Source of the DNA: Escherichia coli
GTDB taxonomy: Bacteria; Pseudomonadota; Gammaproteobacteria; Enterobacterales; Enterobacteriaceae
NCBI RefSeq assembly: GCF_044324785.1
Contig: NZ_CP172127.1
Length of the DNA stretch: 64,000 nt
Direction: 5' to 3' (one strand)
Shown: positions 16,758 through 47,403 of the stretch, piece by piece
How the letters are laid out: the number at the start of each line of letters is the position of its first letter
How positions within the stretch are numbered: the first letter of the stretch is position 1
Notes under the pieces: generated by a model
Told to the model about the DNA's origin: nothing
Database searches by the model: none
Seen by the model: only the letters and a program-made list of their open reading frames with translations
Translations under genes and position numbers: made by a program

Positions 16758-17895
16758 GTCAGAGCCCCTCGATCTCAATCAGTTAGCGCAAAAAATTAAA
16801 CAGTGGGGGCTGGAACTGGGCTTTCAGCAGGTAGGTATTACCGATACCGATCTCAGCGCGTCCGAGCCCAAACTGCAAGCATGGCTGGACAAACAATACC
16901 ACGGCGAAATGGACTGGATGGCGCGTCACGGTATGCTGCGTGCTCGTCCTCACGAATTATTGCCCGGTACGCTGCGCGTGATCAGCGTGCGGATGAATTA
17001 CCTTCCTGCTAACGCCGCATTTGCCAGCACGCTGAAAAACCCCAAGCTCGGCTATGTGAGCCGTTATGCGCTGGGCCGTGACTATCACAAACTTCTGCGC
17101 AACCGACTCAAAAAGCTGGGCGAGATGATTCAGCAACATTGTGTTTCGCTGAATTTTAGACCGTTTGTCGATTCTGCGCCTATTCTCGAGCGTCCGTTAG
17201 CTGAAAAAGCAGGACTCGGCTGGACAGGTAAGCACTCACTTATCCTCAATCGCGAGGCTGGTTCGTTCTTCTTTTTAGGCGAATTGCTGGTCGATATTCC
17301 TCTGCCCGTGGATCAACCGGTCGAGGAAGGATGCGGTAAATGCGTGGCCTGTATGACGATTTGCCCGACCGGAGCCATCGTCGAACCATATACCGTCGAT
17401 GCTCGCCGCTGTATCTCTTATCTCACCATCGAACTGGAAGGGGCGATCCCGGAAGAGTTGCGACCGTTAATGGGAAACCGTATTTATGGTTGCGATGACT
17501 GCCAGCTTATCTGCCCGTGGAATCGCTATTCGCAACTCACTACAGAAGACGATTTCAGCCCGCGTAAGCCGCTACACGCTCCGGAACTCATTGAGTTATT
17601 CGCCTGGAGCGAAGAGAAGTTTTTAAAAGTCACGGAAGGTTCGGCGATTCGCCGTATAGGTCACCTGCGTTGGCTGCGTAATATCGCCGTAGCATTAGGC
17701 AATGCCCCCTGGGATGAAACGATTTTGACAGCACTGGAAAGTCGTAAAGGTGAGCACCCACTTCTCGATGAGCACATAGCGTGGGCGATTGCGCAGCAAA
17801 TCGAGAGGCGAAATGCGTGCGTGGTCGAAGTGCAATTACCGAAAAAACAGCGTCTGGTTCGGGTGATTGAAAAAGGGTTACCGCGTGACGCCTGA
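16756..17895 (+). CDS. queG: Epoxyqueuosine reductase QueG
   Basis: Start MSEPLDLNQLAQ; 4Fe-4S Cys motifs (CGKCVACMTICP, CDDCQLICP); divergent from nnr. Confidence 0.85.
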
Positions 17896-18164
17896 TTCAT
17901 CCACAGCTTGTGAATAAAAATAAAAACGCATTGCAATTCAAGCCGGAAAAAATCGTCAAGTGATCGATACGACAAAACGAAATCTTAATTTTTAACTTAT
18001 CTATCAATAGGTTAAAAAAATACTATTCACCGTGCGAAGTTTCTTTGAAATTAAGATTACAGCCTGAGACTGTGGATAACTCTGTTTACAAGAGTTTGTC
18101 AGAGACAACAAAAACCAGCAATAACGCATCGCGTCGCTGTGGATATTTTATTGAGAGAAGAATT

Positions 18165-18240
<76 letters not shown>

Positions 18241-18276
18241 TTGGGTGGTCTGTGCTTTGCAGCACTTTTCAAATTT

Positions 18277-18352
<76 letters not shown>

Positions 18353-18387
18353 TTGGGTGGTCTGTGCTTTTCAGCACTTTCAAATTT

Positions 18388-18463
<76 letters not shown>

Positions 18464-30901: not shown

Positions 30902-32457
<1,556 letters not shown>

Positions 32458-32545
32458 AATTTCATCGGGTCCGAATTTTTGGACCTTTTCTCCGCTTTTC
32501 CTTGCTGTCATCTACACTTAGAAAAAAACCAGTAAGGAAACATTT

Positions 32546-33079
32546 ATGCGCCTGCTCCCTCTCGTTGCCGCAGCGACAGCTGCATTTCTGGTCGTTGCCT
32601 GCAGTTCTCCTACGCCGCCCCGTGGCGTGACCGTAGTGAATAATTTCGATGCTAAACGCTATCTCGGTACCTGGTATGAGATTGCCCGTTTTGATCACCG
32701 CTTTGAACGTGGACTGGAAAAAGTCACCGCAACATACAGCCTGCGTGATGACGGCGGCCTGAATGTCATTAATAAAGGCTATAACCCTGACAGAGAAATG
32801 TGGCAGCAGAGTGAAGGGAAAGCGTACTTTACCGGCGCACCAACTCGCGCTGCGCTGAAAGTGTCATTCTTTGGTCCTTTCTATGGCGGTTATAACGTTA
32901 TTGCACTCGATCGGGAATACCGCCATGCGCTGGTTTGCGGTCCGGACCGCGACTACCTGTGGATACTCTCCCGCACGCCAACCATTTCTGACGAAGTGAA
33001 ACAGGAGATGCTGGCAGTTGCGACCCGGGAAGGGTTTGATGTCAGTAAGTTTATTTGGGTACAGCAACCCGGTAGTTAA
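32546..33079 (+). CDS. blc: Outer-membrane lipocalin Blc
   Basis: 177-aa lipoprotein (lipobox VVAC) with lipocalin motif GTWYEIAR. Confidence 0.9.
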
Positions 33080-33393
33080 TGAGTGCTGAGTTTCAGACCA
33101 ATAATCCCCAATACGATTAACGTCAGACTCGCCAGGCGCATCGGGTTAGCGGACTCGCCGAGCAGCACAATGCCGGTGATGGCCGCGCCGACTGCGCCAA
33201 TACCCGTCCACACGGCATAAGCCGTCCCTACCGGTAGCGATTTCATCGCCCAGGCAAGTAGCGCCATACTGACAATCATCGCCGTCACGGTAATAACACT
33301 TGGCGTCAAACGACTAAAGCCGTGGGTATATTTCAGGCCAACGGCCCATACCACTTCCAGCAGACCAGCAATAACTAAGATAATCCAGGACAT
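33076..33393 (-). CDS. gdx: SMR-family guanidinium exporter Gdx (SugE)
   Basis: Start [22 protein letters not shown]; 105 aa, four TM helices. Confidence 0.88.
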
Positions 33394-33419
33394 ATCAGGC
33401 TCCGGAGAATTGGGGCCGT

Positions 33420-33468
33420 CCCCGGTGAAAAGACGCGTTTGCAGGTCGTCCTGCAAAGCTGATGGTTG
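33420..33468 (-). ncRNA. Guanidine-II (mini-ykkC) riboswitch in the gdx leader
   Basis: Two hairpins with ACGR loops on the minus strand (gcaggACGAcctgc and ggggACGGcccc) just upstream of the gdx RBS and start. Confidence 0.6.
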
Positions 33469-33567
33469 AACGGATATTTTGCCAGGTGGCAGAGGAATTT
33501 CAACTATTACCTTTGTGACTATCGCAAAAAAACAAACGGCACGACACAGCTGCCGTACCGTTATTGC

Positions 33568-33714
33568 TTATTGCTGCGCTTTCGTTGCTGCGCCAGAAAT
33601 CGCGTTACCGCCATCAGAAATGTCTTCACCAACGCCACGCGTGGTGTTGCAGGCAGTTAATACTGTTGAAAGCACCAGAACAGAAAAGATCGCTGCAATT
33701 GTCTTCTTCACCAT
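33568..33714 (-). CDS. ecnB: Entericidin B lipoprotein
   Basis: Manual translation gives [48 protein letters not shown]; not in the ORF track because it is under 60 aa. Confidence 0.8.
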
Positions 33715-33824
33715 AACGTCTTCCTTTTAGGTAATGTTATTTATGTTTGCCTATAGCAAATTAATAATAGACAACATCGCCAAAAATGATGGAAATCTGA
33801 TGATTTTTCGGAAGAGAAGAAAAA

Positions 33825-33950
33825 TTAGCTGGCAGCGCGGGAGATGGAGTTGCCGAGGTGTTTGATATCTTCGCCGAAACCGCGAGCGGTGTTACAGCCC
33901 GTAAGCAGCGTGCTGGCAAGCAAAACAAGAACGATAAGGCGTTTCATCAT
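33825..33950 (-). CDS. ecnA: Entericidin A lipoprotein
   Basis: Manual translation gives MMKRLIVLVLLASTLLTGCNTARGFGEDIKHLGNSISRAAS. Confidence 0.8.
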   Translation of the reverse strand: MMKRLIVLVLLASTLLTGCNTARGFGEDIKHLGNSISRAAS

Positions 33951-34001
33951 CTCTAACCTGAATAAGTGATGGTGCAGCCTGCAGGCCGCACCACAACCGC
34001 A

Positions 34002-34568
34002 TTACTTCACGCGAGAGACGTATTCACCAGAGCGGGTATCCACTTTGATGACTTCGCCGATTTGTACAAACAGCGGAACTTTAACCACAGCGCCAGTAGA
34101 CAGGGTAGCCGGTTTGCCGCCAGTACCTGCGGTATCACCTTTCAGGCCCGGATCGGTATCCACGATTTCCAGTTCAACGAAGTTCGGTGGAGTAACGGAG
34201 ATCGGCTGACCATTCCACAGAGTTACGATACACTCTGCCTGATCCAGCAACCATTTGGCGTTGTCGCCAATTGCTTTTGCATCAGCAGACAGCTGCTCGA
34301 AAGTTTCGTTGTTCATGAAGTGCCAGAACTCACCGTCGTTGTACAGGTAAGTCAGGTTCATATCGACAACATCAGCGCCTTCAGCGGAATCAGTAGATTT
34401 GAAGGTTTTTTCTACGCGAGTACCGGTCAGCAGACGACGCAGTTTAACGCGAGCAAATGCCTGGCCTTTACCCGGTTTTACGAATTCACTCGCTTCAACC
34501 GCGTAAGGTTCGCCGTCTAACATGATTTTAAGACCAGCACGAAAATCGTTGCTATAGTACGTTGCCAT
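34002..34568 (-). CDS. efp: Elongation factor P
   Basis: 188 aa, [46 protein letters not shown]. Confidence 0.96.
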
Positions 34569-34609
34569 AAGGCCCTCTGAAATTTGTTAATTGGTAGCTA
34601 AGCCACAAA

Positions 34610-35638
34610 ATGGCGCATATTGTAACCCTAAATACCCCATCCAGAGAAGATTGGTTAACGCAACTTGCCGATGTTGTGACCGATCCTGATGAACTTCTGC
34701 GTCTTTTGAATATAGACGCGGACGAAAAACTGTTGGCCGGACGCAGCGCCAAAAAGCTTTTTGCCCTGCGTGTGCCCCGCTCATTTATCGATCGCATGGA
34801 GAAAGGCAATCCGAACGATCCGCTTTTGCGTCAGGTAATTACCTCGCAAGATGAGTTTGTCGTCGCGCCCGGATTCTCCACCGACCCGCTGGAAGAACAG
34901 CACAGCGTAGTGCCAGGTTTGTTGCATAAATACCACAACCGGGCGCTTTTGCTGGTCAAAGGCGGCTGCGCGGTAAATTGCCGCTATTGCTTCCGTCGCC
35001 ACTTCCCCTATGCCGAAAATCAGGGCAACAAGCGTAACTGGCAGACTGCACTTGAGTATGTTGCTGCGCATCCGGAACTGGACGAGATGATTTTCTCCGG
35101 CGGCGATCCGCTGATGGCGAAAGATCACGAGCTGGACTGGTTGCTCACACAACTGGAAGCCATCCCGCATATCAAACGTCTGCGGATTCACAGCCGTCTG
35201 CCGATTGTGATCCCGGCACGCATCACAAATGCGCTGGTTGAACGCTTTTCACATTCTACGCTGCAAATCTTGCTGGTGAATCACATCAACCATGCCAATG
35301 AGATAGATGAAACATTCCGTCAGGCGATGGCTAAGTTGCGCCGGGTAGGCGTTACTTTGCTGAACCAGAGCGTTCTGTTACGTGGCGTGAACGATAACGC
35401 GCAAACGCTGGCAAACCTGAGTAATGCGTTGTTCGATGCGGGCGTGATGCCGTATTACCTGCATGTGCTCGATAAAGTTCAGGGCGCGGCGCATTTTATG
35501 GTGAGTGATGACGAAGCACGGCAGATTATGCGTGAGTTGCTGACACTGGTGTCGGGATATCTGGTGCCTAAACTGGCGCGAGAAATTGGCGGCGAACCCA
35601 GCAAAACGCCGTTGGATCTCCAGCTACGCCAGCAGTAA
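34610..35638 (+). CDS. epmB: EF-P beta-lysylation lysine 2,3-aminomutase EpmB (YjeK)
   Basis: Radical-SAM CxxxCxxC motif (CAVNCRYCFRRHFPY); divergent from efp. Confidence 0.9.
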   Translation: MAHIVTLNTPSREDWLTQLADVVTDPDELLRLLNIDADEKLLAGRSAKKLFALRVPRSFIDRMEKGNPNDPLLRQVITSQDEFVVAPGFSTDPLEEQHSVVPGLLHKYHNRALLLVKGGCAVNCRYCFRRHFPYAENQGNKRNWQTALEYVAAHPELDEMIFSGGDPLMAKDHELDWLLTQLEAIPHIKRLRIHSRLPIVIPARITNALVERFSHSTLQILLVNHINHANEIDETFRQAMAKLRRVGVTLLNQSVLLRGVNDNAQTLANLSNALFDAGVMPYYLHVLDKVQGAAHFMVSDDEARQIMRELLTLVSGYLVPKLAREIGGEPSKTPLDLQLRQQ

Positions 35639-35872
35639 CTGATTAAACAGGGAAGTTTAATCTTTGCACGTTGCATAACCTTTAATTATTCATATACATT
35701 GCTGTTATTACTTTTTATATAACCAACACCAATAATTAACCTTTCTTTTCTGTTTATATAGAGTGAGCACGGCTATTTATGTTATTTTAACAACTATTAC
35801 TACCAAGCCCATTTATCTGGCTTATAAATTAAAATTAATTATTTAATTGAGAAATGGTTAGGGAGAACCTAC

Positions 35873-47327: not shown

Positions 47328-47403
47328 GCCCGGATAGCTCAGTCGGTAGAGCAGGGGATTGAAAATCCCCGTGTCCTTGGTTCGATTCCGAGTCCGGGCA
47401 CCA
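47328..47403 (+). tRNA. pheU: tRNA-Phe (GAA)
   Basis: gcccggatagctcagtcggtagagcaggggattgaaaatccccgtgtccttggttcgattccgagtccgggcacca, 76 nt with GAA anticodon; promoter-like ttgacg/tttaat upstream. Confidence 0.92.

Follow-up and report, generated by a model that had tools for sequence, protein, structure and literature searches.

What precedes gdx (sugE) in this stretch of E. coli DNA, is it an intact guanidine-II (mini-ykkC) riboswitch, and which nucleotides hide the Shine-Dalgarno (SD) sequence when the switch is off? A sequence-only reading of the window (the whole stretch analysed, 64 kb in length) had described two ACGR-loop hairpins upstream of the gdx ribosome-binding site on the minus strand, and both are found, P1 at 33457-33438 and P2 at 33423-33412. 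It had named a covariance-model scan as the check on its claim. We scanned the entire window with Rfam 15 at gathering thresholds and retrieved four tRNAs and a single non-tRNA match, RF01068 (Guanidine-II, mini-ykkC) at 33457..33411 on the minus strand, with a score of 49.3 bits (E 9.5e-7), above the gathering score of 32, and with an alignment that covers the full model (positions 1-48 of 48). A local scan of 32400-34700 gives the same family at E 3.4e-8, and at the permissive limit of E<=1 no other Rfam family is matched on either strand of that interval. A search for the bare motif GGACGRCC-N12-42-GGGACGRCCC finds it at one place in the window and nowhere in 100 dinucleotide shuffles of the window. 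The motif at E. coli sugE/gdx has been known since 2007, and its role in sensing guanidine since 2017. Its parts in the window are as follows.

33411..33457, minus strand: guanidine-II aptamer (P1, linker and P2), RF01068 at 49.3 bits
33438..33457, minus strand: P1 hairpin, UUUGCAGG-ACGA-CCUGCAAA, 8-bp stem with the ACGA tetraloop at 33449-33446
33459-58 with 33436-35, minus strand: possible 2-bp extension of P1 across a 1-nt bulge
33424..33437, minus strand: linker of 14 nt between P1 and P2, CGCGUCUUUUCACC
33412..33423, minus strand: P2 hairpin, GGGG-ACGG-CCCC, with the ACGG tetraloop at 33419-33416, from the sequence and the Rfam alignment
33400..33403, minus strand: SD sequence GGAG, 6 nt upstream of the ATG at 33393

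The interval first proposed for the element, 33420-33468, has to be corrected, as it lies about 10 nt too far 5': it takes in an untranslated 5' stretch, P1, the linker and, from P2, the 5' strand alone, with the loop and 3' strand of P2 (33419-33412) falling outside it. The aptamer spans 33457-33411. Base-pair probabilities in P1 are 0.83-1.0, and the hairpins folded in isolation have energies of -9.9 kcal/mol (P1) and -5.6 kcal/mol (P2). A spacer of 8 nt separates the end of P2 from the GGAG, the same motif that is marked as the SD in Fig. 1 of PMC13064478, and 18 nt separate it from the gdx ATG. The guanidine-II class is defined by two hairpins whose ACGR tetraloops are each closed by two conserved G-C pairs, by 16 conserved nucleotides and by a linker of 7-40 nt, and is described as a translational ON switch (PMC5558903). 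Members precede guanidine-related genes, either a Gdx/SugE exporter or a guanidine carboxylase operon. All 16 conserved positions are present in the window (GG-ACGA-CC in P1 and GG-ACGG-CC in P2), the 14-nt linker falls within the class range, and the aptamer is part of the 5' UTR of a Gdx/SugE exporter gene, just ahead of its SD and start codon. The assignment to guanidine-II made from the letters alone holds up on the RF01068 match, on the SugE/Gdx equivalog downstream and on the literature on the same E. coli element. We conclude that the locus is almost certainly the chromosomal guanidine-II riboswitch of E. coli gdx, a translational ON switch. It is an intact, ordinary and already known element, and as a discovery it matters little.

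The gene that the aptamer precedes, and the signals further upstream, can be set out in the same way.

33076..33393, minus strand: gdx (sugE) coding sequence, 105-aa guanidinium/H+ antiporter, from NF008512, K-12 identity and the RefSeq annotation of strain N3
33476..33503, minus strand: promoter-like site, -35 TTGAAA, 16-nt spacer and TG-extended -10 CAAAAT, from a consensus scan
33525..33562, minus strand: intrinsic terminator of ecnB, 12-bp stem and T-run, from a terminator scan

The product scores 192.5 bits against the NCBIfam SugE equivalog NF008512 (cut-off 126), and the Qac and EmrE models all stay far below their own cut-offs. The nearest PDB structures are Gdx-Clo entries (115 bits for 6WK5, vs 44 bits for EmrE), and by these profile and structure matches the product is placed in the Gdx (guanidinium exporter) clade of SMR transporters. 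It is identical to K-12 Gdx at 104 of 105 residues, with T91 here and A91 in K-12. The stop codon of gdx overlaps that of the convergent blc by 4 nt, with ampC and frdABCD beyond blc and with ecnB, ecnA, efp and epmB on the other flank; the window is E. coli chromosome (frd-ampC-blc-gdx-ecnBA-efp). A 301-nt region of the locus matches strain N3 at 100% identity and occurs in 5425/5426 complete E. coli genomes.

Upstream of the aptamer, the promoter-like site has its -35 hexamer at 33503-33498 and its -10 at 33481-33476, and an alignment shows the -35 hexamer conserved in the K-12 and Citrobacter-type leaders. From this placement we infer a transcription start near 33469 and a 5' UTR of about 76 nt, and the ecnB terminator would insulate gdx from ecnAB transcription. 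The list of open reading frames also holds a 126-aa frame with a TTG start (33456..33076, minus strand) that crosses the aptamer and shares the gdx reading frame. We reject it as a mechanical artefact of that list, because residue 1 of the SugE profile match falls on the ATG at 33393, a start codon with an SD of its own.

In the genomes shown, RefSeq leaves the matched 66-nt leader without any annotated feature, and the full feature tables of strain N3 (NZ_CP031609.1) and K-12 (NC_000913.3) list no riboswitch. The gene itself is named "guanidinium exporter" in the K-12 record and "quaternary ammonium compound efflux SMR transporter SugE" in the inspected non-K-12 records. The practical value of the locus thus lies in annotation: the riboswitch is unannotated, and a guanidinium exporter is named as a quaternary ammonium efflux transporter.

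Comparison with strain N3 and K-12 brought up further differences along the chromosome. Three tandem tRNA-Gly genes lie at 18168-18463 in the window and at 17874-18172 in N3 (locus L126), about 294 nt further along in the window, and since the gdx coordinates coincide, the window and N3 differ by indels between about 18 kb and about 33 kb and represent different strains. The K-12 spacer between yjeJ and epmB contains a sub-threshold naRNA4/REP-like match (L002 440-529; 39.9 bits vs a gathering score of 59.5), and strain N3 and the window lineage (window about 35640-35870) have a version of this spacer that lacks about 160 nt, so the match is read as a variable REP element. In strain N3 a frameshifted tyrosine recombinase/integrase fragment is annotated just downstream of tRNA-Phe (pheU; L126 47600-47759) and is likely the scar of an integrated island; tRNA-Phe of the window lies at 47328-47400.

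The closest characterized relative of the window's leader is that of K-12 sugE/gdx, which has the same locus, gene order (blc-gdx-ecnB), P1, P2, SD and start. The element had been called intact, and both hairpins are indeed identical to those of E. coli K-12 MG1655. The 191-nt intergenic regions are 98-99% identical, with four differences: two substitutions and a 1-nt indel upstream of the aptamer and, as the only difference in the riboswitch, a linker position that is G33434 in the window and C in K-12. The K-12 leader scores 50.4 bits against RF01068 at the orthologous site.

To count alleles, we required an exact match over all 66 nt of the leader (33395-33460) and searched 5426 complete E. 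coli genomes. The K-12 allele is found in 3160 of them and the window allele (G33434) in 1123 (~21%), O157:H7 strains included, the remainder being other haplotypes; at an identity of at least 95% the leader is present in 5362/5426. Among the sequences inspected, variation is confined to the linker and the spacer between P2 and the SD, with a single exception. The chromosome of E. coli AR_0081 (NZ_CP027534.1; L003 154-200) has the P1 loop AUGA in place of ACGA (equivalent to window 33448), an allele that is unique among the 5426 complete genomes and lowers the RF01068 score to 40.6 bits. The changed base is the loop C that forms the loop-loop kissing pair, and this is probably an uninducible natural allele, as the kissing model predicts. 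AR_0081 also carries a blaCMY-2-blc-sugE plasmid (L004, NZ_CP027535.1) with an intact Citrobacter-type riboswitch.

Mutations of the E. coli riboswitch that give ionic-liquid tolerance were reportedly described by Higgins et al. in 2019 (J Bacteriol). The same E. coli element has been described as a guanidine-II riboswitch controlling sugE/gdx in several studies (PMC9300104, PMC9094411, PMC13064478, PMC12186494), and a 2025 review, which places E. coli, Salmonella and Klebsiella among the guanidine-II carriers, states that riboswitch mutations raise ionic-liquid tolerance (PMC12186494). NMR and SAXS of a 49-nt E. coli aptamer (Gdn49) gave guanidinium-dependent G-C kissing pairs by NMR (PMC9300104), smFRET and simulation of a 47-mer gave a ligand-dependent kissing state by smFRET, and the crystal structure 5NDI shows P1 of E. 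coli as a dimer (PMC9094411). Structural work on the guanidine-II class uses the E. coli sugE element as its model system. By analogy with this published work, done on identical hairpins, the aptamer in the window would bind guanidinium and form a kissing complex, and gdx expression would be expected to rise with guanidine, as in an ON switch.

Genetic evidence comes from Cs+-resistant E. coli, which carries a 20-bp deletion on the gdx strand, delCCGGGGACGGCCCCAATTCT (PMC13064478). In the window this deletion corresponds to 33425-33406 or, equivalently, 33423-33404, so that P2 is removed and the linker is left. It makes gdx constitutive, and addition of guanidinium induces Gdx-dependent Cs+ resistance in E. 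coli (PMC13064478).

In the mechanism that we consider, a guanidinium ion would bind in each ACGR loop of the ~76-nt leader, and the ligand-bound loops would kiss through their C and G bases, holding P1 and P2 head to head; binding and kissing have both been established by experiment for the E. coli sequence. This state would leave the GGAG and AUG accessible, so that the Gdx guanidinium/H+ antiporter could be made and the toxic ion exported; without guanidine the ribosome-binding site would be occluded and gdx nearly silent. Any assignment of the nucleotides that mask the SD in the absence of guanidine is a matter of inference, and the papers describe the way in which kissing would expose the SD as no more than "proposed".

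The linker is drawn as the "putative anti-SD" in two of the studies (PMC9300104, PMC9094411). In K-12, its complementarity to the SD is limited to four pairs, one of them G.U, between C33434-U-C-U33431 and G33403-G-A-G33400, and G33434 in the window cuts these pairs (CUCU:GGAG) to three, yet some 21% of the genomes have this base. In ViennaRNA folds the probability of linker-SD pairing stays below 0.05 with either allele. Nor do the folds settle on another partner, as the predicted partner of the SD shifts with the length of coding sequence included. To open the SD..AUG stretch costs about 6 kcal/mol in each of three states: the free RNA, the RNA in which both hairpins are locked and the RNA that carries the constitutive 20-nt deletion. 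Given these equal opening energies and shifting partners, nearest-neighbour folding neither reproduces nor explains the switch.

A different wiring of the same riboswitch, tentative and on balance doubtful, would have P2 itself open in the OFF state, with its 5' strand and loop, GGGACGGC (33422-33415), and its 3' CC (33413-12) pairing with the SD GG, the GCC that follows and AUG-GUCCU, until guanidine-driven kissing traps the P2 hairpin and frees the ribosome-binding site. This is the structure predicted when 30 nt of coding sequence are included (a 106-nt fold): the probability of the P2 hairpin drops to 0.2, the SD nucleotides G33403 and G33402 pair with C33412 and C33413 at 0.62, GCC 33400-398 pairs with GGC 33417-15 at 0.68 and G33391 of the AUG pairs with C33418 at 0.46, the linker partners remaining below 0.05. 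With 13 more coding nucleotides (43 nt), however, the minimum-energy fold keeps P2 and the SD pairs with the coding region, and NMR sees P2 folded in the isolated aptamer, a construct without the SD (PMC9300104).

Other species give a similarly divided picture. P2 is the predicted partner of the ribosome-binding site (at least 7 expected pairs) in 7/25 other gdx leaders among the matches listed, and the leaders with this partner often use GGGUCGUC or a GGCCGUC tract that can pair with the P2 loop and 3' stem. Across 27 gdx leaders among the matches listed (one of them, L121, with a mis-parsed start codon), however, the expected number of pairs between ribosome-binding site and aptamer equals that of the shuffled control (3.96 vs 3.96), and the partners are heterogeneous, being P2, the linker or the coding region, with no general rule. 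The genetics lean slightly the other way, in that a constitutive deletion of P2 with the linker kept fits occlusion by a P2 strand somewhat better than a linker-only anti-SD.

The natural polymorphism of the linker is a ready-made test of the way in which the OFF state conceals the SD. We would give only low odds to the linker being other than neutral in the sense that either strains with G33434 are leakier or differently tuned, or the alleles behave identically and the linker anti-SD model is wrong. Identical behaviour would mean that in E. coli the SD is hidden by invasion of a P2 strand or by the coding region.

Quite unlikely, in our judgement, is control that acts partly or mainly on the mRNA, through termination at P1 and a U-tract, Rho-dependent termination in the leader or RNase E decay. 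Such control would agree with the strong rise of gdx mRNA in the P2-deletion strain (RNA-seq with n=1 per condition; PMC13064478), although an mRNA rise can be secondary to translation protecting the transcript, and an RNase E layer is documented for guanidine-III (PMC9094411, PMC12186494); the guanidine-II class, by contrast, is described as a translational ON switch (PMC5558903). A consensus scan also flags P1 followed by CGCGUCUUUU as terminator-like. The flag, which spans P1 at 33438-33457 and CGCGTCTTTT at 33428-33437, was raised in a loose scan and is probably coincidental, judging by the short and displaced U-run. P1 is an improbable intrinsic terminator both by anatomy, as a G+C-rich stem should run straight into a long U-tract and here no more than 4 consecutive U occur, 6 nt beyond the stem, and by logic, as the ligand stabilizes P1 and would then turn expression off, contrary to the induction observed.

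Returning to the translational ON switch, we asked how the motif behaves in other genera. A scan of GTDB species genomes with GGACGRCC-N12-42-GGGACGRCCC gave at least 120 loci, with 134 matches among those listed, mostly from high-G+C Actinomycetota or metagenome-assembled genomes and with few Enterobacterales (Yersinia and Providencia only). A Gdx-like ORF follows within 700 nt (phmmer E<1e-3) in 25 of the 134 listed matches, from Pseudomonas, Shewanella, Yersinia, Providencia, Paraburkholderia, Bradyrhizobium and others; the search covered gdx-like ORFs alone, and 109 of the 134 have none within 700 nt downstream. Bare matches are common in high-G+C genomes, and the motif alone is therefore weak evidence.

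In the 25 listed gdx-associated matches together with the window, P1 pairs 3, 4 and 5 can form in 100%, 100% and 92% of sequences, respectively, and are made up of 3-4 types of base pair; P2 pair 4 can form in 100% and is made up of 5 types. The sample is pattern-selected (loops and inner G-C pairs fixed) and counted per sequence, not per evolutionary event. The same stem positions pair in about 54-62% of the 109 listed matches without gdx. In this sample the stems are conserved in relatives and covary, as expected of stems maintained by compensatory change. The ACGA/ACGG loop combination of E. coli is common to 6/26 of these sequences (the 25 listed and the window).

That the two hairpins in the window are a chance resemblance or a decayed relic without regulation, as the many listed matches lacking gdx might allow, is a negligible prospect given a covariance-model score 17 bits above threshold, a motif that none of the 100 shuffles of the window produced, hairpins identical to those of the experimentally active K-12 element, a leader kept at high identity across nearly all of the complete E. 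coli genomes and an aptamer that lies exactly in front of gdx.

Besides K-12, a close relative of the chromosomal riboswitch is the one that travels on plasmids. The Citrobacter-type leader has the same architecture, and its P1 and P2 hairpin sequences are identical to those of the window; its linker has 1 nt less and carries U at the polymorphic position (CGCUUCUUUCACC), and its SD context is CUGGAG, compared with CCGGAG in the window. The copy on NZ_CP027535.1 (L004 1549-1593) scores 47.2 bits against RF01068, and over a 445-nt query of gdx plus leader the Citrobacter type and the window are 77% identical. PLSDB contains 705 records that match this query, 688 of them at 60-80% identity, the Citrobacter-type band. 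The Citrobacter-type gdx and riboswitch accompany blaCMY-2 and blc on IncI, IncA/C and related plasmids, and plasmid-borne gdx copies under guanidine-II control were noted in the 2025 review (PMC12186494). Carriers of the conjugative blaCMY-2-blc-gdx plasmids include Escherichia, Salmonella, Klebsiella, Providencia, Vibrio and others.

In 64 PLSDB plasmids (including NZ_CP029110.1, L005 about 1495-1515) a subset of the blaCMY-2-blc-sugE carriers, the mobilized segment ends inside P1. Plasmid backbone stands in place of the 5' strand of P1 and of ACG in its loop (equivalent to window 33457-33447), and P2, the SD and gdx are intact, with no Rfam match left. Under the kissing model, such a P1-truncated copy would be unable to respond to guanidine.

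The guanidine-II riboswitch of P. aeruginosa, whose P2 was crystallized by Reiss and Strobel in 2017, likewise has a pair of ACGR hairpins ahead of a SugE-type gene and is also modelled as a translational ON switch (PMC5558903). For P. aeruginosa the proposed partners of the SD are the 5' end of P1 and a portion of the linker, and in the E. coli leader no such complementarity of the SD to the linker or the P1 5' end is evident. Guanidine-I (ykkC), -III and -IV share the ligand and overlap in the genes that they regulate, gdx among them (PMC12186494); their folds are unrelated to that of guanidine-II, and classes I and IV act on transcription.
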